In this document: in pieces, positions 1,512 through 55,797 of the stretch | How the letters are laid out: each line of letters begins with the position of its first letter | Numbering within the stretch: position 1 is the first letter of the stretch | Source: Candidatus Uhrbacteria bacterium | Lineage (GTDB): Bacteria > Patescibacteriota > Patescibacteriia > UBA9934 > GWF2-40-263 | Assembly (NCBI GenBank): GCA_023246355.1 | Contig: JAHFIQ010000001.1 | Location: forward strand, 350,247 to 414,246 | DNA: 64,000 nt | Direction of reading: 5' to 3' | Notes under the pieces: generated by a model | The model's database searches: none | Seen by the model: the letters and a program-made list of their open reading frames with translations, nothing else | What the model was told of the DNA's origin: nothing | Translations under genes and position numbers: made by a program

Positions 1512-4500
1512 AAAAATCTGTGTGTTTCTATTTAGAAGGCTCATTCAAACTCTCACACTAGCCATCGTGACTTTCACGATGTCTGCTGTGGTTGTTTCAA
1601 CAGCCAACGCGGCAACGATTACCGGAGTGAACGACTACCCAACCACGCTCCAGTCGTCCCAAGCTGCCAATCACACCGTGCTCTTTACAACACCAACAGG
1701 TGCAGCACTTGGCTCCACGATCACGCTTTCGTTTTCCACGCCGTTTGATACATCCACGATTACGGAAGACGATGTGGATGTGGCAGATGATGGAGTTGAT
1801 CTCACGACAGCTGCGACATGTGCAGGAACGGAACAGGCTTCTGTTTCTATCGCATCAGACGTTGTCACCATCACGATTTGTGCAGGTGATGGCGGCGCGA
1901 TTGCTGCCGCGTCTCAGATCACCATTGAGATCGGAACAAATGCCACTTCATCAGGAACAGGTTCAAATCGCATCACCAATCCGACTTCCACTGGAACCTA
2001 TTTCCTGAGCGTGGCTGGTACGTTTGGCGATGCTGGATCGATTGCGCTTCCCATTGCAGGAGATGATTCTGTATCCGTGACCGCTGATGTGGCTTCTCGC
2101 TCCAGTGGAACAGGAACAGGAGGCGGATCCTCGCCAACATCAGACACAACCGCTCCCACGATCAGCAACATCGTGGTGAGCAATGTGACGGAAACAAGCG
2201 CGACTATCACTTGGACCACAGATGAATCGTCCACCAGCTCGGTGAGCTATGGGATAACCAGCGACGCTGATGACTCGACGAGTTCCGATAGTTCATCCAC
2301 GACGTCCCACTCCACCACTCTGACAGGTCTTACCGCTGGGGAGACGTATTACTTTACGGTGAGCTCAACCGATAGCAGTGGTAACAGCGCGACTTCATCT
2401 GTTCAGTCATTCACAACGCTCGACGATACTGGTCCAGTGATTTCAAATGTGGAAGTCGTGAACATCACAACCACTTCTGCAACAGTCACCTGGACAACAG
2501 ATGAAGCCGCTGACAGTACCGTTTCCTACGGTGAGACCACGAGCTACGATTCATCAGAATCTGATAGCAGTCTTGTTACGTCGCATTCCATCACTCTGAC
2601 AGATCTCACTCCTGGGACCACGTACGACTTTCAAGTGCTGTCCTCAGATTTTTCTGGAAACCAATCGTACACAGATAACGACACATTTGAGACAGACGAA
2701 GACGGGACACCGACAAATGTTTCAGATCTCGCCGCAGATGCAGGAGACGAAACGATCGTTCTGACTTGGACAAATCCTGACGATGAAGATTTGGCTGGGG
2801 TTCTCATCCTTGTGTGCGTCAACGAATATCCAGACGGACCAAACGACGAAGATTGCACAGAGGTCGATGCGGGACTTGCTGAGTCTTACACACTCACAGG
2901 TCTCACAAACGGAACAACGTATTACATTGGTGTGTTCGCTTACGATGATGCAGGGCAATTTGCTTCTGGCGCTCTTGTGACAGCTGTCCCAAGTGCTTCA
3001 GAAAATGAGGTGCCCTCCGAAGAGACAACGGAGGCAGAAGAGGAACCTGGTACAGAAGAGCCAGGTGACGAAGAGACATCTGTTCCAGATTCCGGAACAG
3101 GTGAAGAAACAACTCCAGGTGAGGAACCCTCATCCGGAGAAGATCTTACGACTGGAGAGGCGTCAGAGGAACCTACCTCCTTGGGTGCGGAGGATGGGAC
3201 TTTGAGTGATGCCGATATCCAGTACTTTGTGGAAGAAGAATCACTTGAGCTGACCACGGACACCTCTGTGGTCGAAGTGCTTTCCGAAAGCACTGTGCTT
3301 ATTTCGATTCCCTCCTCGGAAATTTCAGATGACGCCACCTCTGTCTTGGTGACGATCGGTTCTGAAACATACCTCATGGTGTTCAATGAGGAGTCCGGTT
3401 CCTATGAAGCAGAAGTCATGCTTTCCGACGCGGACGGTGTGTACACACTGACCGTGACTGTCGCCTCAGGCGATGGGTCGGAGTCTGTTTCTTCATACCT
3501 GTACATCGTCAATCCAGGCGATGTCTACCAGGTCGTCGATGATGAAGAAGCAGCCGTGGCCGATGCAACAGTAACACTCTATGAAGTGGTAGATGGTGAG
3601 CTGATCGTTTGGGATGGTTCCCCGTACGGTCAGGAGAATCCCACTCCCACAGCGGCAGATGGTACGTTCGCTTGGTATGTTCCAAACGGAACATACGTCG
3701 TGGTCGTGACGGCTGAGGGGTTTGAAACAGCACAAACCTCACAGCTCGTAATCGATAACGGCATTGTGAATCCTAGGATTCTTCTGACGGCCCTGGCGGT
3801 GCCTGAGGAAGAACAAGGAACAGCTCTTGAAGAAGGAGAGACCACCTCCCTTATTCAAAACGTTCTCTCTGTCTCCTCGGTTGAGGCCTTGCAAGAGGCG
3901 CTCTCTCAACTGCGAGACATTCCAGGTGTAGAAACGGCCGCTGAGATTTCGACGCCCGTGCTTGCCCTTGGTGCAGGTGTGAGCTTGGTCGTGCTGTCTC
4001 TGGCCTACGATTTCCTGTCTCTTCTTCAATATCTTTTTACAGCGCCTCTCCTATTTTTGTGGCGCCGCAAGAGGAAAGGATACGGAGTCGTCTACAACGC
4101 GATTGGCAAAAAACCAATCGACTTGGCTCTGGTACGTCTGTACCAGCTGACAAACGGTGAGGAGGCGACGCCACGCTCCGGCCGCCTCCTCCAAAGTCGT
4201 GTTACCGACCGCGAAGGTCGCTACTACTTTCTTGTGTCCCCTGGACGGTATCGGTTGAGTGTCACCAAATCTGGGTTCGAGTTTCCCTCGGAGTATTTGA
4301 AAGGTGAGAACACCGATGGTCAGTACTTGGATGTGTATCATGGCGAAGTGATTGAGGTGAAGGATAAGGATGCGGTCATCACGGCGAATATCCCGATGGA
4401 TCCGTCACAAGCAGATGCGTATCAAACACCATCGGCTGTTGTGTGGCACAAACGTCTGCGCAAGCTTCAGCACAGCTTCTCAGCTCTCGGGATTGTGGCA

Positions 4501-4899: not shown

Positions 4900-7800
4900 A
4901 TGTTCTTATCAGGGAGGAAACAATCTCTCGCCCTTGTCCTCATCACCCTCGTGTCGATGATGAGCTTTGTGTTTTCTTCCCAAGCCGCTGCGCCGACCAA
5001 CATCGTGACCTATCAAGGCCGATTGTTGAATTCAAATTCTGTCCCGGTTTCTGACACGAGCCTTTCCATGAAATTTTTCTTCTATACGGCTGTCACGGGT
5101 GGAACCTGTGTCTGGTCTAACTCTTCCGCGACATGCAACAGCAACACACCAGCTTCCACCACCGCTCGAACCGTCACACTCACCTCAGGACTCTTCACCC
5201 AAAATTTGGGCGACACGGGAGATTCCTTCGCCGCCATTTCCGATTCGATTTTTGCAGATAACTCAACCTTGTTTTTAGAAGTGATCGTTGGCAGTGAAAC
5301 GCTTTCCCCTCGTCGCCGACTCACCGCGGCTCCTTATGCTCTGAACGCACAGACATTGGATGGGATTGATTCTGGATCTTTTCTGCGCGACACAGGGGAT
5401 ACAGCCACGGGGGATTATGACCTGACCGGAGCCACTCTCTCGGGAGGTTCTCCGATTGTGTTGGAAGGTGCCTCCGCAAATAGCTTTGAAACAACACTGG
5501 CTCTGACAGATCCAACAGCTGATCGAACGATCACCTTTCAAAATGGCTCTGGCACGGTCGCGTTTTTGACAGACGTCACGGGTGGAGGTTTATGGGAGTC
5601 AGGCACATTTGTCTACGAAGATGATTCTGCTGTTGTGGTCGGCGCTGATGCCGCTTTCACGTATGCCAGTGGTGGTGTGGGAGATTTGCGTGTGGCAGAT
5701 CAGCTGGAAGTGCTTGATGATATTTTCGTTGATAATGATTTGGTTGTCGGCGCCTCGACGTCATCTACAGAAACGATTGCAAACAGTTCATTTAGTTTGG
5801 GCGGCAACGACTTCTTTGCGGCAAGTGATGTGGGTGTGGAAGGAAACGTCTATATCGACGGCGCGATTGATTTGGTTGGCACGGCGACGGTCGGTGACCT
5901 TGCCTGTACGGATTGTTTGGACTTTGCAGAACTTGTCGATGCCTTGTCTTTGGATGCCTCGACGTCCATAGCACTTGACGGAAGTGAAACGTTTTCGATT
6001 ACCAACGGCGGTACAGGCAATGTCATCACCAACCTCTCTTCCACGGGAGACTTTGTGATTCAAGATAATGGCGCGGCCATTCTCACGGTTGCGGACGATG
6101 ATGTTCTTACCTATTCAACGGACTTAACAACGACCAGTGCGATTGGATTCACAGGCAACAGTCTTACCACAGGAAGTCTGCTAAACCTTTCTGCCACAGG
6201 TCTCACAACCGGAACAGCTTTGACTGTGACGGCCAGCAATGTGAGCACAGCCAACTCGGCTTCAGTGCTGAATCGTTTCGTGTTGACCAACAGTCAATCG
6301 ACCATCGCCAATACAGGGATCACCGGTTTGTCTGTTGGGTTTACCAATGCCCCCTCCATTGCTGGAAACACAGAGCGAGTTGTGTCCATTAGCAACGAGT
6401 CCACAACCAACACAACAGATAACCTCGTTACAGCGTTGCTTGCTTTGGATAATGCTGATACATCGACGACGGGATCTACGGTTGTCACAGATGCGATCTC
6501 GATCGCCGTCTCAGGAGCGATTGCCAACGGCATCGTGGACGCGATCGACGCCTCGGATGCCAACATTACCAACGCCCTCAACATCGGAACCAACACGATT
6601 CTTGGTACGACCGGTGTGATTGATTTTAGCAGTTTTGATGTTGATGGGAGTGGGAATGTCACGGCGAATGATTTCATCTGCACGGACTGTGTGGACTTTA
6701 CCGAGATGATCGATGCCATGTCTTTGGATGCTTCAACATCGATCGCGATGGACGGTTCTGAAACCTACACCCTCACCAACGGCGGTACAGGCAATGTCGT
6801 CACCAACCTCTCCTCTACGGGAGACTTTGTTATCCAGGATAACGGTGCGGCCGTTCTCACCGTTGCCGATAATGATGTCTTTACCTATACAACGGATTTG
6901 ACGACCACCAGTGCGATGACACTTACAGGCAACAGCCTCACCACCGGGAGTCTTTTGAATCTGTCATCAACAGCTCTTACAACGGGTTCAGCCCTGAGTG
7001 TTGTGGCGACCAATGCCAACACAGCCAATTCCTCCACACGTTTGAGTCAATTCTCGTTTACGAACTCTCAAGCAACCGTTGCAAATGGAGATATTGCCGG
7101 ACTGTTTCTTAATTTTACGAACAGTCCATCGATTGGTGGCAACACCGAGCGTGCCATGTCGATTGTGAATGCTCCAACATCCAACACAACGGATAATGCC
7201 GTGGCTGCGCTTCTGTCTTTGGATAACGCTGATACGTCAGGAACAGGTTCTACGGTTATTACCGATGCCCTGTCGATCACGGTGTCAGGAGCGATTTCAG
7301 ATGGGATCGTGGACGCGATTGATGCTTCCGATAGCAACATCACTAACGCTCTCAATGTTGGTGCCAACACGATTACAGGAACGACCGCGGTGATTGACTT
7401 CAACAGCTTTGATGTGGATAACAGCGGTATTGTCACGGCGAGTGACTACGTGTGCACGGACTGTATCGACTTTGCTGAGCTCATCGATTCCATGTCTCTG
7501 GACGCGTCTACCTCTATTGCGATGGATGGCTCAGAAAACTTCACCGTGACCAATGGTGGAACAGGAAACATGGTTGTGAACCTGTCATCGACAGGCGACT
7601 TTGTGTTGCAGGATTCTGGATCACCCTTTTTCTCTATCAATGACAACAAAGTTATTTCTTATTCCACAGACCTTGCAACAAGCAATGCTGTGGCTCTCAC
7701 CGGCAACAGTCTTACCACCGCCAACCTGTTGACCCTGACAAGCACCGCACTCACGACAGGATCAGCGCTCTCAGTTACCGCCTCAAATACCAATACAGCC

Positions 7801-45779: not shown

Positions 45780-45854
45780 GCGGGTATCGTATAGCGGTTA
45801 TTATCTCAGTTTTCCAAACTGATGATGCGGGTTCGACTCCCGCTACCCGCTCCA
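45780..45854 (+). tRNA. tRNA-Gly(TCC)
   Basis: Acceptor gcgggta/tacccgc, anticodon loop ttTCCaa, T-arm gcggg-ttcgact-cccgc, encoded CCA. Closely resembles Bacillus-type tRNA-Gly(UCC). Confidence 0.85.
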
Positions 45855-45855
45855 T

Positions 45856-45931
45856 CGGGACGTAGCTCAGTAGGTAGAGCGCCTGGTTTGGGACCAGGAG
45901 GCCGCAGGTTCGAGCCCTGTCGTCCCGACCA
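45856..45931 (+). tRNA. tRNA-Pro(TGG)
   Basis: Acceptor cgggacg/cgtcccg, D-arm gctc-agtaggta-gagc, anticodon stem cctgg/ccagg with loop ttTGGga (G37), T-arm gcagg-ttcgagc-cctgt, encoded CCA. Separated from tRNA-Gly by 1 nt. Confidence 0.85.
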
Positions 45932-45967
45932 CAGCACACGGTGATCCAAGCCGTGTTTTGTGTTATC

Positions 45968-46507
45968 ATGAAGATCTGGAAATCTTTTATGGACGAAACA
46001 AAAAAGGGCTTCACTTTTATTGAACTCATCGTCATTCTGGCCATCGTAGGATTGTTGGTCGCGTTTGTATTTGTCGCTCTCAATCCTACAGATCGACTGG
46101 AGCAAGCACATGATGCTGTTCGGCAAACGGACGTTGAAAAAATCTTGTCTGCCTTGGAAGCCTATCAGGCAGATCATGAGGGAAGCGATCTTCCGACGGT
46201 TTCTGCGCTTGAGAATGAGAATGTCTACATGATTGTTGATGGTGCGATGGCAGTGGGGTGCGATGACCAGAATGCCGCGTGCGATACATCGGTGACGGAC
46301 GATACGGCATGTGTGGATCTGGGTGAACTTGCGGATACGTACTTGTCGGTCGTGCCCGTCAGTCCCTCTGGTCATGTAACCTGGGATCACGGTTCAGTCG
46401 ATGGCGATACAGGGACTGGGTATACCTTGCAAACACAGGAGGGCGGTGTGATCCACATCCGTGCCTGTGAGTCAGAGGCCACGACCGAGATTGAAGCCTC
46501 AAGATAA
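45968..46507 (+). CDS. Type IV pilin / pseudopilin (prepilin-type N-terminal cleavage/methylation domain)
   Basis: KKGFTFIELIVILAIVGLLVAFVFVALNP: class III leader, G-F-T-x-x-E, hydrophobic helix. C-terminal region has four Cys (possible disulfide loops). Start refined to ATG 45968. Confidence 0.75.
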   Translation: MKIWKSFMDETKKGFTFIELIVILAIVGLLVAFVFVALNPTDRLEQAHDAVRQTDVEKILSALEAYQADHEGSDLPTVSALENENVYMIVDGAMAVGCDDQNAACDTSVTDDTACVDLGELADTYLSVVPVSPSGHVTWDHGSVDGDTGTGYTLQTQEGGVIHIRACESEATTEIEASR

Positions 46508-46589
46508 AGTACAAACAAATCGCCCTTAAAAGAGGGCGATTTTTGTATTGCCAAGCGTTTAGCGATTTGATATATTAATCGCGCTTTAC

Positions 46590-46666
46590 GGGCGTGTAGC
46601 TCAGGTGGTTAGAGCGTTACACTGATAATGTAAAGGTCGATGGTTCGAGTCCATCCACGCCCACCA
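46590..46666 (+). tRNA. tRNA-Ile(GAT)
   Basis: Acceptor gggcgtg/cacgccc, D-arm gctc-aggtggtta-gagc, anticodon stem ttaca/tgtaa with loop ctGATaa, T-arm gatgg-ttcgagt-ccatc, encoded CCA. Confidence 0.85.
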
Positions 46667-46699
46667 GTCGACATCCAAAATTGGATGTCTATCATTCGC

Positions 46700-46774
<75 letters not shown>

Positions 46775-46832: not shown

Positions 46833-47054
46833 CTTACCCACTGTGTGATTGCAACGTGCTATTCCAGCTTTCAATCTTTCAATTGAACTGTCCTGATCAA
46901 ACCTTGTCGTTAAGAAACGACAAGGTCTGGTTGCTTCGCCTCGCTCGGAAGTGATCGAGCAAGCTCGACACTTCTCTCACTTCGGCTCGCAATCAAACTG
47001 TTTGATCTCGACCTAGGATCTGTCTTCAACCGAGGTTGAAGAGATATCCCTAAA

Positions 47055-48553
<1,499 letters not shown>

Positions 48554-48996: not shown

Positions 48997-49380
48997 ATGG
49001 CTGACAAGCTTTTCGACCAGGAGTTCGTCGAATATATTGTTCGGGCAATCGTCAATCATCCAGATGACGTGAAGACCGAGCGAATCGTAGACGAACGCGG
49101 CGTGCTCATTACTCTTCACATCAATCAAGAGGACATGGGGTACGTCATCGGTCGCCAGGGTCAGACCGCTCGCGCGGTTCGCACATTGCTCAAGATCGTT
49201 GGCGCCAAAGAAAATGCGCGCGTCAACTTGAAGATCTACGAGCCAGAAGGTTCTCGTCGCCCACGTCGTGAAGAAGGTGATCGCCCTGTGCGGGATGATC
49301 GTCCTGCCTACAACGACCGCGGCGCCACGGATTCCTTCAGCGGATCGAGCGACTCGTCTGTAGATGATCTCGGGATTTAA
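48997..49380 (+). CDS. KH-domain RNA-binding protein (KhpA/UPF0109-like)
   Basis: ...DVKTERIVDERGVLITLHINQEDMGYVIGRQGQTARAVRTLLKIVGAK has the GxxG KH core; C-terminal R/D-rich tail. Confidence 0.7.
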   Translation: MADKLFDQEFVEYIVRAIVNHPDDVKTERIVDERGVLITLHINQEDMGYVIGRQGQTARAVRTLLKIVGAKENARVNLKIYEPEGSRRPRREEGDRPVRDDRPAYNDRGATDSFSGSSDSSVDDLGI

Positions 49381-49439: not shown

Positions 49440-51551
49440 TTACTCAATGACGAGAACGTACAAATTTCCATCTGTGAAAAATTGGTCGCCCGTGAAATTT
49501 TCTCCCAGCACAGGATGAACAAATTGAATCGTTTGCTCAAGGTGAGCGGCGGTTGAGGTTTGAAGATCAGAGAGAAGGAGGTCGCGTTCGGTATCCACGT
49601 CTGGTTCGATTTTGTGTGTCACTCCCCATTTGAGTCCTGAATCAAAACTCGCGGTTCCGACATACACGTGGAAGCCATCTGGCGTGATGAGGTTCGTGCG
49701 CCAAAACCGTGCGTGGTGGCGTTCTCGGATGCTGTCCTCATCCGTTGCTTTTTGGAATCCGAAGTCATTCACCTGTGCATCCCAAAAGGCAGGTGTCATC
49801 GGAGCGGTTGCGTACCCTTCGTTCAAAAAGGCCGCCTGGGTGATTTTCAAAATGGTGTGCAGGGTTATCGCCTCGGCCCTCTGCCAGTGAGCCTGTGAAA
49901 AGACGTTCACAAGGTCATCATCTGATTTGGCCAGCACAAGGAAACTCAGGGGCTCTCGTGCGTTTCCCAGGAGGTCTTCTGAATACCGTGGAAGCATTCC
50001 ACCGGAAAAGGCGGAAAGAGGGTCGTGAACGGTTTCAACGGTTTGTGCTTGTGCGTTGAGTGTCTCGATGACGGGTTTGGTTGAAAAAAAGATATAGCCA
50101 AGTGAAGCGAGAATAACCGGGGACAAGACGACCGTTGTGAGAACTCGGAAGCGAAGACTTTTTTGTTTCGTGATGGGTTGGAGTTTGGGTGTGATTTTCC
50201 ATTCGCACAACGAGATCCCGATGATGAGCCAGATCATCCCAAGGACATATCCTCCCAGCACGTCGCTTAAATAGTGGACACCAAGATAGAGTCGGCTGAA
50301 TCCAACCGTCAGGATCAGGACAGCAGACAGGAGCAAGGCGTTTAAACGGATATTTCGGTTTACAACGGTTCGCCAAATGAGATAGGCGAGGAACCCATAA
50401 AACACCACGGCCACGGTTGCATGACCACTGGGAAACGAAAAAGAGTCTTCGGCGTACACCGCGAGTGCAGGTCTTTCTCGTTGAACAATGACCTTTCCCA
50501 AGAGAGCCAACACTTGAGCGCCCAGGAGGGAAGTCCACAACGGGACAATAAATTTTTTGTTGTGCCAGAGAAAGAGAAACAAGGAGAGCCCCAGTGACCA
50601 TAGGATGATCACTTTCCAATTTCCGAGTTGCGTGAGCCACAGGAGAACTTCTGTTGCGCGTGGGTTGCGGAAAAAGTACAGCAGATTTTCGATGCGGATG
50701 TCTGCCTCTACGATCGGGTCAGAGGCGATCACGTCTTGAATGAGCCCTCCCAACGTTGCGATCGCCCAGAGCATGGCCATGACGAGAAAAGAGAGGGGGA
50801 GGCCTGAGAATCGTTGCAGAGACAGGCGGTGTTGGAAAAAATGAATCAGCCTGGGGTGGTTCTGAATGAATTTTTTTACATCAGGATTTGTTTCCATGGC
50901 AGTGCGTTGGGATGTGAGGAGGGAAACCGTGACTCTCCACAGATGTGGTCCATAACGACCCATCAGATAACGGACCAACAGAAGCAACGCGAAACATCCC
51001 AGCAGCACGAGCAGCAGAAATCCAACCCGCGACGACCAGGTGAGAGCCGTCTCCCAGGCTTGACCGAAGATCCATCCCAGGGTGAGATAGGCCGCAGCAC
51101 TCGCAAATCCACTGAGCACATTCCATACGTAAAAATTCAGACGTTTCATTCCCAGCATCCCTGAGAGGTAGGGAACAAAGCCTCGGATGGGTCCGATGAA
51201 TCGCGCAAAGAGAATACTTTTTCCACCATGGTCATCAATAAATTTTTCAGATCGCTCAACGAGTTTTTTGGGGAACTTGAGAAGCAGTCGATTTTGCAGT
51301 CGGGTGGAGGCGCCAAGGGTGTAGGCAAGGGCATCACCCAAAATGCCCCCAGCCCCCGCAAACCAAATCAGATCCCCAAGATCAAGCACGCCCATTTTGG
51401 AAAGAAACCCAGCGAACAAAAGCACGATCGCTCCGGGGATGATGAGACCTACCAGCGGTATGGATTCGAGCACGGCAACCAAAAAAATGATCCAGTAACT
51501 GAAGAGACCAAGATTTGTTATAGTAGGGAGCAGTTCGTTCACGTGTATCAT
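49440..51551 (-). CDS. Fusion protein: DedA/VTT-family membrane domain, PAP2 (acid-phosphatase-type) domain, and C-terminal LssY-like domain
   Basis: N-terminal DedA-like helices (...GFVPYLSGMLGM...), PAP2 motifs (KxxxxxxRP-like QRERPA, PSGH, SRLYLGVHYLSDV), and a soluble ~230-aa C-terminal domain. Confidence 0.75.
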   Translation of the reverse strand: MIHVNELLPTITNLGLFSYWIIFLVAVLESIPLVGLIIPGAIVLLFAGFLSKMGVLDLGDLIWFAGAGGILGDALAYTLGASTRLQNRLLLKFPKKLVERSEKFIDDHGGKSILFARFIGPIRGFVPYLSGMLGMKRLNFYVWNVLSGFASAAAYLTLGWIFGQAWETALTWSSRVGFLLLVLLGCFALLLLVRYLMGRYGPHLWRVTVSLLTSQRTAMETNPDVKKFIQNHPRLIHFFQHRLSLQRFSGLPLSFLVMAMLWAIATLGGLIQDVIASDPIVEADIRIENLLYFFRNPRATEVLLWLTQLGNWKVIILWSLGLSLFLFLWHNKKFIVPLWTSLLGAQVLALLGKVIVQRERPALAVYAEDSFSFPSGHATVAVVFYGFLAYLIWRTVVNRNIRLNALLLSAVLILTVGFSRLYLGVHYLSDVLGGYVLGMIWLIIGISLCEWKITPKLQPITKQKSLRFRVLTTVVLSPVILASLGYIFFSTKPVIETLNAQAQTVETVHDPLSAFSGGMLPRYSEDLLGNAREPLSFLVLAKSDDDLVNVFSQAHWQRAEAITLHTILKITQAAFLNEGYATAPMTPAFWDAQVNDFGFQKATDEDSIRERHHARFWRTNLITPDGFHVYVGTASFDSGLKWGVTHKIEPDVDTERDLLLSDLQTSTAAHLEQTIQFVHPVLGENFTGDQFFTDGNLYVLVIE

Positions 51552-51560
51552 AGCGACCCC

Positions 51561-52253
51561 ATGATCTCACTTTTTATGGCCAAACTCAAGATGAAACAAT
51601 TTGAGGTGATCACTCTTTTTCCCGAGGTTGTTGAACCCTATGTGCAGGCGTCAATTTTAGGTCGGGCACAGAAAGCCAAACGCATTGAGGTACGCGCTCA
51701 CCAGTTACGTGACTGGTCCGTGGACAAACACCACAAAGTTGACGACACGCCCTACGGCGGCGGGCCGGGGATGGTGATGAAGGTGGATGTGTTTGAGTCT
51801 GCGGTGCGCATGGTAGCCGCAGGCTTCAGCCTGCGCCGAAAAAAGAAGACGCGTGTGATCCTCACCTCAGCTTCAGGAAAGACCTTCACGCAGGCCGATG
51901 CCAGGCGACTCGCAAAATACGATCAGCTGATTTTTTTGTGTGGACGCTACGAAGGCGTCGATCAGCGTGTTGAGGATCATGTTGCAGACGAAGCGCTCTC
52001 GATCGGCCAGTACGTTTTGACCGGTGGCGAACTTCCAGCGCTGGTCATGATCGATGCGATCGCGCGGTTGGTACCAGGCGTCATTGAAAAAGAATCGCTC
52101 ACGCGCGAGTCACACAGTGAAGAAGGCTACCGGGAACATCCTCAGTACACCAAACCGCCTGTTTATAAAAAATGGAAGGTGCCAGAGGTATTGCTTTCAG
52201 GGGACCATAAAAAAATTGAAGAATGGAGAAAAGCCTTTTCGGCTCATCAATAG
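51561..52253 (+). CDS. trmD: tRNA (guanine37-N1)-methyltransferase TrmD
   Basis: ...FEVITLFPEVVEPY...DDTPYGGGPGMVMKVDVF...LIFLCGRYEGVDQRV...LSIGQYVLTGGELPALVMIDAIARL. Alternative starts at ATG 51576 or 51591. The ORF track fused it to an upstream out-of-gene stretch. Confidence 0.9.
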   Translation: MISLFMAKLKMKQFEVITLFPEVVEPYVQASILGRAQKAKRIEVRAHQLRDWSVDKHHKVDDTPYGGGPGMVMKVDVFESAVRMVAAGFSLRRKKKTRVILTSASGKTFTQADARRLAKYDQLIFLCGRYEGVDQRVEDHVADEALSIGQYVLTGGELPALVMIDAIARLVPGVIEKESLTRESHSEEGYREHPQYTKPPVYKKWKVPEVLLSGDHKKIEEWRKAFSAHQ

Positions 52254-52256
52254 CAT

Positions 52257-52288
52257 AAAAAATCCGTCCTTGTGGGACGGATTTTTTT
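52257..52288. terminator. Strong, likely bidirectional intrinsic terminator after trmD
   Basis: aaaaaatccgtcc-ttgt-gggacggatttttttg: a perfect 10-bp stem, a 7-T tail on the plus strand and an A-tract on the other side. Confidence 0.8.
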
Positions 52289-52302
52289 GGACCCGGATCG
52301 GT

Positions 52303-52378
52303 TGGTGGACCCGACGGGATTTGAACCCGTGATCTCCGGTGTCAAAACGGATGAGGTTACCGCTACCTCCACGGGCCC
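52303..52378 (-). tRNA. tRNA-like gene with non-canonical anticodon arm (candidate tRNA-Val(GAC) with expanded loop, or UGA-anticodon tRNA); G3:U70, A73, encoded CCA
   Basis: Minus-strand sequence GGGCCCG-TG-GAGG-TAGCGGTAA-CCTC-A-TCCGT-TTTGACA-CCGGA-GATC-ACGGG-TTCAAAT-CCCGT-CGGGTCC-A-CCA. Acceptor, D-arm and T-arm (loop TTCAAAT) are canonical. The anticodon stem has a U:C mismatch at 31:39. The 7-nt register gives UGA with C37; the alternative is a 9-nt loop holding the canonical U-GAC-A Val context. Confidence 0.6.
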
Positions 52379-52536
52379 GTGCGATCCGGGATAAATAAAA
52401 CCCCCAACTTTAAGACCCATCGGCCTAAAATTTGGGGGGATTTTATTTTGACACCGGAATGAAGGCATGCGCCTCATCCGTCTAGTTACAGTTCATCACA
52501 TAATTTACTGAACGTCAAGGTGATGCTGTTGATAAA

Positions 52537-52563
52537 TTAAAAAAACAGCAGATGCGTCTGCTG
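52537..52563 (-). terminator. Intrinsic terminator on the minus strand
   Basis: On the minus strand, a 7-bp stem cagcaga/tctgctg with a 4-nt loop, followed by a U-tract (plus-strand A-run 52538-52545). Confidence 0.5.
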
Positions 52564-52591
52564 CTACGAATGACTGAAACACGTGTTGGGC

Positions 52592-52792
52592 CTAGATCGT
52601 GAAGAGGATGCCGTGAGGGAGGAACTGCACTACGGGCGGTGGGCCAGAACCGTCATCGACGAGAATCTCGTACAGCGCCCATCCTGAACCCTGTGTGACA
52701 AGGCGATGGTTCGGATTCGTGGCGAGATCCTGTCCGGCCGTGCGGTTGGGACTGGGGAACCAGAATGGGAAGAGATAACGGAGAACTTTCAT
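52592..52792 (-). CDS. Small hypothetical protein (66 aa)
   Basis: MKVLRYLFPFWFPSPNRTAGQDLATNPNHRLVTQGSGWALYEILVDDGSGPPPVVQFLPHGILFTI; followed on its strand by the terminator at 52537-52563. Confidence 0.3.
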   Translation of the reverse strand: MKVLRYLFPFWFPSPNRTAGQDLATNPNHRLVTQGSGWALYEILVDDGSGPPPVVQFLPHGILFTI

Positions 52793-52922
52793 GGCCACAC
52801 CTCGTTTGGAGGCTAACATTTGTTTTTAAAACAATCAAGCGTGCGTACTAAAAGATTCGGATCCGTGTAAAGTGATTGACGTATGAGCCTCCTTGGCCTA
52901 GGGTGGCGACTGAGGAGGGGAC

Positions 52923-53384
52923 ATGCCTCTGTCTGATCCATCTTGCCCACCGACGTTTTCGGAAATTTATCGACTCTTGGACATCAGTCTAAGAGGCGGA
53001 AGGCAACAACATGCGCAAGCCCTGAGTGAATTTCGGACGTGCGAGAGGGATCTCCGCTACGCCATGGCAAACGCACATCTCGACCGGCAACGCGTCATCA
53101 AGGCGGGAAAAGATCTTGACGCGGCAAAGCGTAGAGAGGCAGAAGCGAAGCACGTTTTGGTCCTTCTGGAAGACACAGGGTTTCGTCGCGAGCTCGCCAA
53201 TTTGGACATGCATTGGCGGCGGTTCCGGATGTCTCACATGGGAGCTAGCAACGACCGATTTGCTGATCTGATGATGGGAGCGCCCGAGGAACAAACCCAC
53301 GAGCTGCGCGCATCGTGGAAACGCATCAGCGACCTCATCGCGGCCAAGGCCACTGCAACACCCACGTCCGCTCTGATACTCTAG
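52923..53384 (+). CDS. Hypothetical protein (high GC)
   Basis: 153-aa ORF, GC3-rich, predicted helical (AAKRREAEAKHVLVLLEDTGFRRELANLDMHWRRF). Confidence 0.45.
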   Translation: MPLSDPSCPPTFSEIYRLLDISLRGGRQQHAQALSEFRTCERDLRYAMANAHLDRQRVIKAGKDLDAAKRREAEAKHVLVLLEDTGFRRELANLDMHWRRFRMSHMGASNDRFADLMMGAPEEQTHELRASWKRISDLIAAKATATPTSALIL

Positions 53385-53451
53385 CCAACGACCGAACGGG
53401 TCGTTTTTCTTTTGGAATTGAAAAGCTCCGACAATGTCGGAGCCGTGGGGA

Positions 53452-53925
53452 TCAGGAGATGGGCACGCGCAGAGCGAGGGACTGCTCGAAGCGGTGCGTG
53501 AAGTAGTACTGACCCGTGGCCGTGAGGACCGCAAGGCGCTGTGCTGGCACGATCGTCTTTTCGAGCTGCGCGCGCAGGGGCTCCCACTGTGCCTTCCCCC
53601 AGGCCAGGCCGAAGAGGAAGTACTCGTAGCTGATCCAGCTAGCCCTGTGGAAGGCGAAGTCGCCCTGGTGCTTGTTCGTCCGCCTCTCCCGCAGGATGAC
53701 GATCTGGCCGGCAGCGACCAGTCCCTCCATGAAGGAGAGGATGCAGGCGCCACGCGAAAGCGGGGTGCCGTTTGGCATGAGGAGTTGGATCTGCACCCGG
53801 GGGTTGATCCACCAGGACTTGGCTCCTTGTTGAACGTGCACGGCGCGCTCCTCGTACGAATGACCTTGGCGCGTGACGATGATGACCGAGTTGCTGTAGG
53901 TGTTGGTGAAGGGTTGGTAGACCAC
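53452..53925 (-). CDS. Hypothetical protein (high GC)
   Basis: 157-aa ORF with balanced, protein-like composition; overlaps low-complexity ORFs in other frames that are rejected. Confidence 0.45.
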   Translation of the reverse strand: MVYQPFTNTYSNSVIIVTRQGHSYEERAVHVQQGAKSWWINPRVQIQLLMPNGTPLSRGACILSFMEGLVAAGQIVILRERRTNKHQGDFAFHRASWISYEYFLFGLAWGKAQWEPLRAQLEKTIVPAQRLAVLTATGQYYFTHRFEQSLALRVPIS

Positions 53926-54167
53926 GAATTCCTCTCTTGAGTCACCGTTGCCGGCGGCGCGGTTGGTGGGGATGCCCTTGTGGGGCGCCGACTTGCAGGG
54001 CGATTCTCACGAATCACCCGAAGGAGCATCAGAAGCTTCAGATTGAATTATCTGTGCTCGCACCATGAGGAAAATATTCCTCGAACGTATGGTCATGTGT
54101 GTTCAATCAGAACAACAGCATAACGCATGAGGATACATCAAAAACGTGATTTTGTCAAACGATCGCG

Positions 54168-54197
54168 CAAAAAGAAAATCCTCTCAGTTTGAGAGGA
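54168..54197 (-). terminator. Intrinsic terminator for the minus-strand genes ending at 54207
   Basis: Stem cctctca/tgagagg with loop gtt, followed on the minus strand by a U-tract (plus aaaagaaaat). Confidence 0.6.
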
Positions 54198-54206
54198 CAG
54201 GGGGCG

Positions 54207-54575
54207 TCAGCTCGCTTTGCGGAACGGGTTGAAGGTGAGTCCCCGCTCCTCAGGCGTGGGGATCGTGACACCCTTGGGAGCCAGGGCGTAGTAGAAACCG
54301 AGGCTGATCGGAAGCAGGTAGAAGACTCCATCTTCACTGCCGATCATGGAAGAGCTGAACTCAGCGGTGAAGAGGCGCGCCTTCCCATCCGTTTTGAATT
54401 CGAGCCCTGTGTCGTCGATGATGGTCTCCACAATCGTGGCTCGCGCATACTCTCGTGACAGTCCACACCCCATCTTGTACTCGACCAGCGTGCCGCCGGT
54501 CAGGTCACCCATGTCTCTTGGGTCGTCCATGTGGTCTCCAGAAGAATCAGTGAGAGGCTTGCTGTGCTTGCACAA
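54207..54575 (-). CDS. Hypothetical protein (high GC)
   Basis: 122-aa ORF; likely start at MDDPRDMGD; no recognised motif. Confidence 0.4.
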   Translation of the reverse strand: MCKHSKPLTDSSGDHMDDPRDMGDLTGGTLVEYKMGCGLSREYARATIVETIIDDTGLEFKTDGKARLFTAEFSSSMIGSEDGVFYLLPISLGFYYALAPKGVTIPTPEERGLTFNPFRKAS

Positions 54576-54855
54576 GCAACTCGCTGTGCAAACGGTTGTG
54601 GGCGAGGATCACCAGTCGGCAGATCCTCTCGTCGGTTGCTCCAGCGCGCCTGGCGCCGCTGACGATCCGCCGGGCACGACCCCGACAGCTTGGGGGGAGA
54701 CGTTCGATGTATTCATTCAACGTCTGGTGCGTTCCTCGAGTGCTCGCGAACTGGACGATCGCTCGAGTCGTCGCTGGGTCATATTCGAGACCCTGCTTCA
54801 GAAGCTCCCGCAGATCGTCAATCCAAGTGGTCTTCGCGATCGAATGTGCCGTCAT
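54547..54855 (-). CDS. Hypothetical protein (high GC)
   Basis: 102-aa ORF overlapping the next gene by 29 nt; helical. Confidence 0.35.
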   Translation of the reverse strand: MTAHSIAKTTWIDDLRELLKQGLEYDPATTRAIVQFASTRGTHQTLNEYIERLPPSCRGRARRIVSGARRAGATDERICRLVILAHNRLHSELLVQAQQASH

Positions 54856-54900
54856 GAACTCTCCATGGCGTGGGTGAGTATAGAGGTTTTTCTGAAAATG

Positions 54901-55797
54901 TCAATGGTTTGATTTTGAAAGTTTTGCAACGAAGAATCCTTCGTATGTGTTTGTTGGTACAAGCGTGGCTGTTTTGTGTGGACCGATTTTGGATGGGAAC
55001 GGCAGGGTAAAGGTTTGGGGTTTCATGAGTGGATATTCTTGTACGAGCCACCCGATCATGTCCTCATTTTCTTCTGGTGAAAGTGTGCACGTGGAGTACA
55101 CAAGCGTTCCTCCAGGTTTCAGACACGCAACCGCAGAGCGCAGGAGTCGGCGCTGGAGTTTAGCATGTTCGGTGATATTTTTTTGTGACCAAAAAGAAAA
55201 GCTACGTCGATCGTTTACGTTGATGCGCCCTTCAGCAGAACAAGGCACGTCGGCAAGGACGCGATCGAATAGCTCGGCATGTGTGTGATGCAGGAGGGTG
55301 GCATCGACGTGGATCGCCTCGGCATTCGCGCCTTGGAGCGTGAGCGTGTGTTTGAGTTTTTCAAAACGGACTGGATCTTTTTCACACGCGACAAGCCGTC
55401 CTTGGTTGTTCATGAGCGCCGCGATTTGGGAGGTCTTGCTCCCTGGCGCAGCGCACAGATCAAGGACGGTTTCGCCTGGCTGTGGATCTAAGACGAGTGC
55501 CGGGAGCATGGAAGTGATGCCTTGCAAGTATATTTTTCCAGAGGTGGTGAGTGGGTGTGCGAGGAGCTCCTTGTCTGTTTTATTTTTGATGATGAACGCA
55601 TGTGGGATGTCTTTCACCCGTTCAAATTGAATGGCGTCTTTGCGCAACGCAGCCATGACCTCGTCGTCAGTTGCGACAATCGTGTTTACGCGAAACGTCG
55701 GAAGTCGTTTCTCCTGCATCGCCAAAAGCATGGTCCGCGCTGCTATCGCGCCGAATTGTTTGATCAAGCGTGAGTTGAGTTCATCGGGGAGATGCAT
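54901..55797 (-). CDS. RsmB/NOP2/Sun-family RNA m5C methyltransferase
   Basis: DLCAAPGSKT (motif I), ...DRVLADVPCSAEG (catalytic PC), ...GGTLVYSTCTLSPEENE (TC motif). Confidence 0.8.
   Translation of the reverse strand: MHLPDELNSRLIKQFGAIAARTMLLAMQEKRLPTFRVNTIVATDDEVMAALRKDAIQFERVKDIPHAFIIKNKTDKELLAHPLTTSGKIYLQGITSMLPALVLDPQPGETVLDLCAAPGSKTSQIAALMNNQGRLVACEKDPVRFEKLKHTLTLQGANAEAIHVDATLLHHTHAELFDRVLADVPCSAEGRINVNDRRSFSFWSQKNITEHAKLQRRLLRSAVACLKPGGTLVYSTCTLSPEENEDMIGWLVQEYPLMKPQTFTLPFPSKIGPHKTATLVPTNTYEGFFVAKLSKSNH

Follow-up and report, generated by a model that had tools for sequence, protein, structure and literature searches.

A tRNA-like gene and an adjacent predicted antisense small RNA with maintained complementarity in uncultivated Patescibacteria

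A 64,000-nucleotide stretch of a Candidatus Uhrbacteria genome (contig JAHFIQ010000001.1, positions 350,247 to 414,246; hereafter the window) carries on its minus strand a gene for a transfer RNA (tRNA)-like RNA, here called X (52303-52378), and directly upstream of it a region (52393-52483) that is antisense to the D and anticodon arms of X and has the layout of a separate small RNA gene. The two-RNA module occurs in several uncultivated Patescibacteria; comparison with related genomes, which had been proposed in a preliminary description of this stretch, recovered the layout of the window in five other lineages. The complementarity between the two RNAs is very probably a selectively maintained RNA-RNA pairing, to judge from compensatory changes between lineages. 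We see about an even chance that the antisense RNA acts in trans and, in the manner of an antitoxin, unfolds and silences X, a tRNA-like RNA that would be charged with alanine and would decode wrongly or not at all. The pairing is well supported, the function an inference.

X is 76 nt long including the CCA end, and was located by ARAGORN, by the Rfam tRNA model and by direct reading of the sequence. It reads GGGCCCG U G GAGG(U) AGCGGUA (A)CCUC A UCCGU UUUGACA CCGGA GAUC ACGGG UUCAAAU CCCGU CGGGUCC A CCA. With GG in the D-loop, a normal T-arm with the T-loop UUCAAAU, and 45 bits in the Rfam tRNA model (RF00005; gathering score 29), it has the cloverleaf of an elongator tRNA, while the other five tRNAs of the window score 61-75 bits. 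The anticodon arm, UCCGU-UUUGACA-CCGGA, holds a U31.C39 mismatch, U33, the anticodon UGA and C37, and thus lacks both the closed 31:39 pair and the purine-37 of an elongator tRNA. All features listed in the preliminary description are present, and ARAGORN, which called six tRNA genes in the window, reports the same 76 nt (52303-52378, minus strand) as 'tRNA-Ser (tga)'. A nine-nucleotide loop with a valine-type GAC context, offered there as another way to read the arm, is less likely than the seven-nucleotide loop UUUGACA; in two lineages the loop is closed by a U31-A39 pair.

The label of a serine tRNA does not fit the variable region of X, which has only 4 nt instead of the long arm of tRNA-Ser. 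A long variable arm is used by bacterial SerRS and LeuRS. The acceptor stem GGGCCCG/CGGGUCC contains G3:U70, together with G1-C72 and G2-C71, and is followed by A73 and the encoded CCA; G3:U70 has been described as sufficient for recognition by AlaRS (PMC11415595). Because the alanine identity set is present and the long Ser/Leu variable arm is missing, X, if charged at all, is predicted to receive alanine. The anticodon is not the NGC of a tRNA-Ala; it is UGA in X and GAG in X', a second type of tRNA-like gene described below. The labels tRNA-Ser and tRNA-Leu given to X-type genes by tRNA finders are almost certainly wrong. The pyrimidine at position 37 suggests poor, error-prone or no decoding. 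A reassignment of UCA to alanine in this organism was considered and ruled out, as the TCA codons of trmD in the window occupy invariant serine columns (Ser in 114-120 of 120 homologues). UCA is still serine, and an alanine-inserting tRNA with anticodon UGA would therefore be harmful. The Rfam model of transfer-messenger RNA (tmRNA, RF00023) also matches X at its two ends, with a deletion of 328 internal positions of the model, and gives 34.7 bits for X of the window, 36.9 and 14.3 bits for two homologues (L088, 866-942, and L085, 715-785; L0xx denotes comparison contigs), all below the threshold of 47. X has neither an mRNA-like domain with a tag reading frame nor pseudoknots, and the alignment reflects the alanine-type acceptor and T-arm. 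Automated pipelines run at relaxed thresholds could mislabel X-type genes as tmRNA fragments.

Upstream of X, two stretches repeat its anticodon arm as exact reverse complements. Positions 52335-52347 match 52446-52458 in 13 of 13 nt and positions 52347-52356 match 52472-52481 in 10 of 10 nt, where about 6e-4 such 13-mers and 0.04 such 10-mers are expected by chance within 300 nt on either side; none of the other five tRNAs of the window has an adjacent inverted copy. The split and permuted copies reported earlier are thus real and not fortuitous, and they extend further than was reported. Segment a, AGACGGAUGAGG (52472-52483, minus), forms 12 pairs, one of them G.U, with linear positions 23-34 of X, that is with the 3' strand of the D-stem, position 26 and the 5' strand of the anticodon stem. 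Segment b, UUCCGGUGUCAAAAU (52445-52459, minus), forms 15 pairs, two of them G.U, with positions 31-45, that is with the anticodon loop and the 3' strand of the anticodon stem. The 13 nt between the copies (52459-52471, minus) had been taken for a mere spacer, which they are not: they comprise the loop and the 3' strand of a hairpin, P1, and their 3' part, UGCCUUCAU, pairs with positions 7-15 of X (GUGGAGGUA), on the 5' strand of the D arm, by nine pairs including three G.U. Taken as a whole, 52459-52483 is a diverged antisense of X 7-34 and 52445-52459 an antisense of X 31-45. The order looks permuted because a hairpin and a toehold together spell out the complement of the three-stranded D/anticodon stack. 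The G.U pairs argue against a purely DNA-level repeat, since they pair only in RNA transcribed from the minus strand.

The antisense segments lie within a predicted small RNA of about 90 nt (52393-52483, minus) with three parts: the hairpin P1 (52455-52480), a single-stranded linker UGUCAA (52449-52454) complementary to the anticodon loop, and the stem of a terminator-like hairpin (52393-52448). P1 shares its basal duplex (CGGA/UCCG) with the anticodon stem of X and mirrors the D stem in its upper part. The 3' half of segment b, which is single-stranded in the predicted fold, would serve as the seed. The same three-part fold was predicted for the small RNAs of contigs L087, L088 and L086. No Rfam family matched the small RNAs. 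The only open reading frame (ORF) over the small RNA, at 52247-52477, extends across both the terminator and the tRNA; it has no match in Pfam and is without a start codon in L088. A small peptide or a tmRNA-like tag frame in the upstream RNA was also considered; on inspection, no frame was conserved between lineages.

A candidate promoter for the antisense RNA was read from the sequence, with the -35 box TTGACG (52513-52518, minus) followed after 17 nt by an extended -10 element, TGA then TGAACT (52490-52498, minus). Transcription would start at about 52483-52485, at segment a. At its other end, a terminator-like hairpin (52401-52439) is followed by UUUUAUUUAU (52391-52400), the whole element, recognised by inverted repeats and fold, spanning 52391-52439 on the minus strand. 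It separates the antisense RNA from X, some 20 nt before the latter. No antiterminator alternative to this hairpin was found in the folds. A sigma-70 promoter built on the TTGACA of the anticodon loop or of its copy was considered as well; inspection showed no suitably spaced -10 on either strand.

Homologous modules were found by a metagenome scan whose pattern fixed three things only: the loop (TTTTGACA), the T-loop and the 3' end (TCCACCA). Four contigs were obtained (L086, L087, L088 and L085), all with an antisense partner, and the X homologues of L087, L088 and L086 have the upstream architecture of the window. A look-up of RsmB relatives combined with synteny added L089, from a third related species, and L091 and L092, from other groundwater wells and identical to L087. 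In the RF00005 model the X of L086 scores 48.5 bits and the X' of L085 63.9 bits, both above the threshold. The U31.C39 mismatch is present in the X of the window, L087, L089 and L088. The G3:U70 pair and A73 occur in every X and in X', with U70, A73 and CCA imposed by the search pattern in the pattern-derived X genes and not imposed in X of the window or in X'. The upstream-type modules share one order: TTGAC(A/G), a 17-nt spacer ending in TGn, TnnAnT, 6-7 nt, segment a, a hairpin and segment b, followed by a hairpin with a U-run, about 20 nt, and X with mutually pairing flanks. The TTGAC(A/G) box is equally distant from segment a in the window, L087, L089, L088, L086 and module 2 of L085, and in six of six upstream-type modules TGn and a TnnAnT hexamer precede segment a by 6-7 nt. 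Likewise, all upstream-type modules have the hairpin and U-run at the matching place.

The modules of the window, L087 and L089 hardly differ between a point about 50 nt upstream of the -35 box and the final terminator. Differences occur only in the P1 loop (CGCAUG in the window, CGUUUG in L087, CGUCUG in L089, with the paired parts invariant), compensated positions in the terminator and a single acceptor pair, itself compensated (C6:G67 to U6:A67). The RsmB proteins of these three species are only about 80% identical and the flanks of the module cannot be aligned. The module adjoins trmD in the window and lies directly upstream of rsmB in L087 and L089; the neighbours differ by lineage and include trmD, rsmB, a PNP-family gene, a glycosyltransferase gene, uvrB and another module. 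The closest relatives of the TrmD of the window are metagenome-assembled genomes of Candidatus Uhrbacteria and other Patescibacteria, with an identity of at most 80% among GTDB representatives and 88% in a large protein collection. Downstream of trmD, X was absent from all of the 80 loci taken from GTDB species representatives, and the module is missing at the corresponding locus in the closest trmD relatives with contigs, L083 (88%) and L084 (85%); X is therefore not a conserved housekeeping tRNA next to trmD. In phage and plasmid collections, pattern scans of viral contigs and blastn found no module and ordinary tRNAs only.

Across the more divergent lineages the two RNAs change together. 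Positions 23, 24, 26, 27, 28 and 29 of X change with segment a, and positions 39, 41, 42 and 43 with segment b, among the window, L088 and L086; all ten compensated positions stay Watson-Crick, and there are no disruptions in the helix cores. The duplex of the window has a predicted energy of -39.9 kcal/mol, compared with -23.8 +- 3.4 for shuffled sequences, of which none of 500 was as good. In dinucleotide-shuffle tests four of the five pairs (window, L088, L086 and module 1 of L085) had z values of -3.7 to -7.6, with at most one shuffle in 500 as good; the duplex of module 2 of L085 is weaker (z = -1.9, 18/500). A 5x5 cofold matrix gave the largest gain to the cognate partner, or a tie, for every RNA, the sole tie being the small RNA of L086 (-4.1 kcal/mol with its own X, -4.2 with the X of L085). 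The pairing analysis was based on pair tables for each lineage and not on a consensus fold: the MAFFT/RNAalifold consensus of six small RNAs recovered only P1 and part of the terminator, being incomplete because the automatic alignment of divergent members was poor. The five X sequences, too, aligned poorly once L085 was included.

As controls we used 44 ordinary tRNAs in Patescibacteria loci and 76 tRNAs of viral contigs that share the T-loop and 3' end of X. Position 37 is a purine in 44/44 and 76/76 of them, and within 400-500 nt of them no same-strand stretch of more than 8-10 nt is antisense to the anticodon arm. Such a copy accompanies every X-type gene for which enough flanking sequence is available.

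The AT-rich contig L085 contains two modules. The X of module 1 is 71 nt long and has a loop of the window type closed by a normal U31-A39 pair, as well as a promoter of its own that the scan recognises (TTGACC-17-TATACT). About 120 nt downstream of this X lies the antisense RNA, which has a separate TGCTATAAT box, a scan-called terminator and a contiguous antisense covering 16 of 16 nt of the anticodon arm and then the D arm with two G.U pairs. A purely cis-acting leader is impossible here, because the antisense RNA is downstream and the two genes have separate promoters and terminators. Direct repeats of 36 nt, 94% identical, bracket module 1 (477-512 and 887-922) and suggest insertion or duplication as a unit. 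Module 2 was flagged by the control script with no imposed pattern. It is of the upstream type, with TTGACA-17-TAGGAT preceded by TG, segments a and b, and a promoter and terminator both called by the scans. Its tRNA-like gene X' was called 'tRNA-Leu (gag)'; it is 75 nt long, has no long arm, and carries G3:U70, A73, CCA and U37. The small RNA of module 2 is antisense to positions 1-34 and 33-44 of X', and its predicted fold pairs differently from those described above. Within L085 the cofold gains are -26.0 and -14.6 kcal/mol for the cognate pairs against -0.4 and -2.1 for the swapped ones. The module family extends beyond one anticodon.

The mechanism we propose is as follows. The small RNA would show the complement of the X anticodon loop as a single-stranded linker beside P1, and the linker would bind that loop. 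The identical stems, the base of P1 and the anticodon stem of X, could then exchange strands, after which segment b would pair with the loop and the 3' stem strand, and segment a and the former spacer with the 5' stem strand and the D arm. X would be unfolded over approximately positions 7-45; it would no longer work as a tRNA and might be exposed to double-strand RNases. Because of the terminator between the genes, more small RNA than X would be made. Free X would be charged with alanine by AlaRS and then miscode (alanine at UCA/UCN) or otherwise load the translation apparatus, and the precursor of X would be further wrapped by the pairing of its 5' and 3' flanks, in every module. The parts of this scheme are not equally probable. 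The upstream element is probably a separate trans-acting RNA; neutralisation of X by the small RNA is a tentative proposal to which we give slightly less than an even chance; and miscoding by free X is rather doubtful. Equally tentative, and on balance unlikely, is that the whole constitutes an all-RNA toxin-antitoxin or abortive-infection module with a tRNA as the toxin. X would then be stable and alanine-charged and, with its Ser or Leu anticodon and pyrimidine-37, would miscode or frameshift when free; a labile, co-evolving antisense RNA would keep it unfolded, and a stop of transcription or loss of the small RNA would free it. Different modules, even within one genome, would use different anticodon arms as orthogonal 'addresses'.

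Several points weigh against silencing of a harmful X by a trans-acting RNA. The sample is small, with six lineages and seven modules, three of them from close relatives, and in the matches derived from the pattern the conservation of the loop, the T-loop and the 3' end was imposed and is no evidence. Generic scans call neither the promoter nor the internal terminator of the window: the -10 was passed over by the consensus promoter scan for the G at its position 2, and the loop and bulges of the hairpin exceed the rules of the terminator scan, which does call the copies of L085. The -10 hexamers TGAACT, TGTACT and TGTAAT are without the usual A at position 2 and depart from the Escherichia coli consensus. 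The transcript ends, the abundance and the RNA-RNA complex are all predictions, and toxicity, alanylation and decoding of X are putative. The pyrimidine at position 37 may mean that X never decodes and serves something else. Finally, the X of L089 has a 48-nt hairpin or palindrome inside the T-loop, so that this X is either a decaying copy or a sign that the tRNA shape is not essential.

The preliminary description had proposed a regulatory leader that base-pairs with the anticodon arm. The pairing is borne out by compensatory changes in four to five lineages; a plain leader fits less well. As a cis-acting element, the antisense segment would be the 5' leader of the X precursor and pair with the D and anticodon arms in the same transcript, with a role in folding of X, in its processing by RNase P or RNase III, in stability, or in attenuation feedback with the internal hairpin. 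In five of the six modules the antisense lies directly upstream on the same strand and X has no recognisable promoter of its own, so that read-through is needed, which fits a cis leader equally well; in the minimum free energy fold of the 211-nt region as a whole, which is more stable than shuffles (z = -3.65), the leader is paired with the 5' half of X; and the conserved pairing of the 5' and 3' flanks suggests control at the level of the precursor. A cis leader is nevertheless, in our view, somewhat improbable. The antisense has its own promoter-like elements, a strong hairpin with a U-run stands between it and X in every upstream-type module, and in the folds no antiterminator pairing was found and X bound on the linker would leave the G+C core of the terminator intact; in module 1 of L085 the antisense is downstream of X altogether. 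The pairing could also be real and X non-toxic, a non-decoding alanyl carrier or tRNA mimic whose availability is tuned by the small RNA, with possible jobs in cell-wall or lipid aminoacylation, ribosome rescue or titration of a tRNA-binding enzyme, or a sponge that controls the small RNA. In favour of this, both anticodon types have pyrimidine-37, which speaks against efficient decoding; X retains the T-arm, the GG of the D-loop and the alanine identity set; and the tmRNA model aligns to both ends. Such a role is less probable still than a cis leader, as no neighbouring enzyme gene is conserved, the neighbours differ in every lineage, and patchy presence and relocation look accessory or selfish rather than housekeeping.

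An origin at the level of DNA, in which the pairing would be functionless, was a further proposal of the preliminary description in the form of a recombination scar or an invertase site; a template-switch inverted duplication or integrase crossover sites belong to the same group. Exact inverted repeats of 13 and 10 nt about 100 nt apart are typical of template switching, anticodon loops are classic integrase targets, and small palindromic insertions are present in the modules of L087 and L089. We regard this origin as very improbable all the same, for in six lineages with different stems the complementarity is preserved through compensatory changes in two separate segments, conservation extends to the surrounding promoter, toehold and terminator, and the G.U part would be mismatched both in DNA and on the opposite strand. 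The D and anticodon arms are present as inverted copies only, with no direct repeat of the 3' half of the tRNA, and a single orientation is seen in all assemblies; inversion between the repeats would yield no new tRNA and only destroy X, and the Pfam scan of flanking ORFs revealed no integrase, invertase or other recombinase domain. An assembly artefact, also raised earlier, or an inconsequential dead pseudo-tRNA has next to nothing to recommend it beyond the low model score of X and the interrupted homologue in L089. A misassembly is refuted by independent assemblies: the contigs L081 and L082, from other ENA samples, are 100% identical over the covered stretches of 52200-55000, and the sister species shows the arrangement in three separate assemblies (L087, L091, L092); the near-perfect conservation of the module next to proteins of about 80% identity and the compensatory evolution speak against a dead gene. 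The TrmD protein adjoining the module was read on five contigs.

Silencing in trans, the reading we prefer, has partial parallels in known systems. In the mistranslating tRNAs (tRNA-ProX of Streptomyces and Kitasatospora; human G3:U70 variants of non-Ala tRNAs) acceptor identity and anticodon disagree as they do in X. They differ from X in its alanine identity with a UGA or GAG anticodon, its pyrimidine-37, its Patescibacteria host and its dedicated antisense RNA; the word 'antisense' is absent from a 2024 review (PMC11415595). Among toxin-antitoxin systems the gene order recalls ToxIN. Type III systems of that kind are arranged as promoter, antitoxin RNA, terminator and toxin gene. The terminator that would keep the RNA in excess and the patchy, mobile-looking distribution are further likenesses, whereas the ToxIN toxin is a protein endoribonuclease bound by RNA and the present module consists of two base-pairing RNAs. 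As in type VIII and non-overlapping type I systems, a short RNA lies adjacent to its target, not opposite it, and in those systems complementarity of about 10-20 nt neutralises the target and is kept by co-evolution. Here the target is tRNA-shaped, neither a conserved ORF nor an ORF for a small toxic protein of type I was found, and toxicity is putative; adjacent RNA genes with maintained complementarity, as in an RNA-RNA toxin-antitoxin pair, are present.

As in the kissing plasmid antisense RNAs CopA-CopT and RNAI-RNAII, recognition would begin at an exposed loop or linker and spread by strand exchange, and module 1 of L085, a plain mirror hairpin of the anticodon arm, predicts loop-loop kissing. 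Those RNAs are encoded on opposite strands of the same DNA, whereas in the module a single strand carries the two genes in tandem, and the antisense takes the rearranged form of a hairpin plus toehold. A T-box riboswitch is likewise an RNA upstream of a terminator and complementary to a tRNA anticodon (here through the codon UCA). Unlike a T-box, the module has no Stem I platform, T-box or antiterminator, its complementarity reaches the stems of one tRNA-like RNA, and in one lineage the small RNA is downstream of its target; no T-box family in Rfam matched at gathering threshold or at E<=10, and the upstream RNA has only about 90 nt. With the tRNA-like domain of tmRNA and with Y RNA (YrlA) modules X shares the alanine-type acceptor and T-arm, and flanks that pair beyond the acceptor. 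It differs in having both the D arm and the anticodon arm complete and in lacking an mRNA-like domain and pseudoknots, and no YrlA match was found in Rfam.

In the literature searched and in Rfam we found no described tRNA-like gene with a dedicated antisense RNA, and in that literature no alanine-identity tRNAs with Ser or Leu anticodons in Patescibacteria. If silencing in trans is correct, it would be the first case known to us of a bacterial tRNA-type RNA with a dedicated, co-evolving antisense RNA, and a cell could carry a code-contradicting tRNA gene that is switched off until needed. Deliberate mistranslation in bacteria and the containment of its cost would then be testable with a transferable module of about 290 nt. 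Different versions of the module could supply mutually non-interfering antisense switches for engineered tRNAs.

The module occupies about 290 nt (approximately 52255-52537, minus strand). Its upstream edge is marked by the terminator-like hairpin of the upstream unit (52544-52565, minus); the similarity among the window, L087 and L089 starts just downstream of this hairpin, at ATTTATCAACAG (about 52537). The internal terminator-like hairpin shows compensatory changes among the same three modules. Around X, the 5' flank CCCGGAUCG (52382-52390, minus) forms an inverted repeat with the 3' flank CGAUCCGGG (52292-52300, minus) and would extend the acceptor stem in the precursor. The 3' flank is kept in L087 and L089 despite insertions between it and the CCA. 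Flank pairing recurs with other sequences in L086 (CCCGAGCCG/CGGCUCGGG), in L088 (UCGACU/AGUCGA) and in L085, where X is flanked by CCGACAACAA/UUGUUGUCGG and the 5' leader of X' pairs with GUCCACCA. Downstream, a perfect 13-bp hairpin (13/13; 52257-52287, not assigned to a strand), with A- and T-runs on both sides, forms a bidirectional terminator closing the module and the convergent trmD; L087 and L089, whose modules do not adjoin trmD, have it at the end of the module as well.

The insertions in the two related modules have a structure of their own. L089 has, besides the 48-nt T-loop hairpin (3201-3248), 61-nt tandem repeats after the CCA (3277-3422), and L087 has a 19-nt hairpin after the CCA (about 5240-5286) in which GGTCCACCA is duplicated. 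The insertions of L089 and L087 share the motifs CGAACGAC/GTCGTTCG and GCCTTCGCT...GCTGGC, and look like miniature mobile repeats.

Elsewhere in the window, a complete 16S rRNA gene (47054-48553, minus) is present with no 23S or 5S gene in the 64 kb, and its 3' side faces the oppositely oriented genes for tRNA-Ile(GAU) and tRNA-Phe (tRNA genes at 45780-46774, plus strand); the rRNA operon is therefore unlinked. Between the KH-domain gene (48997-49380) and trmD lies a gene for a membrane protein of 703 amino acids with PAP2 and LssY_C domains (49440-51551, minus). The KH-domain gene and trmD are adjacent in most relatives, and L084 shares the PAP2/LssY_C insertion.

Codon 240 of rsmB in the window (54901-55797, minus) is TCA (Ser) in a column that is alanine in 119 of 120 RsmB homologues, including those of other module-bearing species. 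It is of note because X would read UCA as alanine, and is probably an ordinary GCA-to-TCA substitution. The 2.3 kb between the module and rsmB (52590-54900) hold short ORFs only, with no Pfam matches, and an Arg/Ser/Pro-rich ORF of 346 amino acids among them looks spurious. Within this region, 53416-54163 has about 69% DNA identity to L083 and L084, and at least one real, unannotated gene is likely to be located there.

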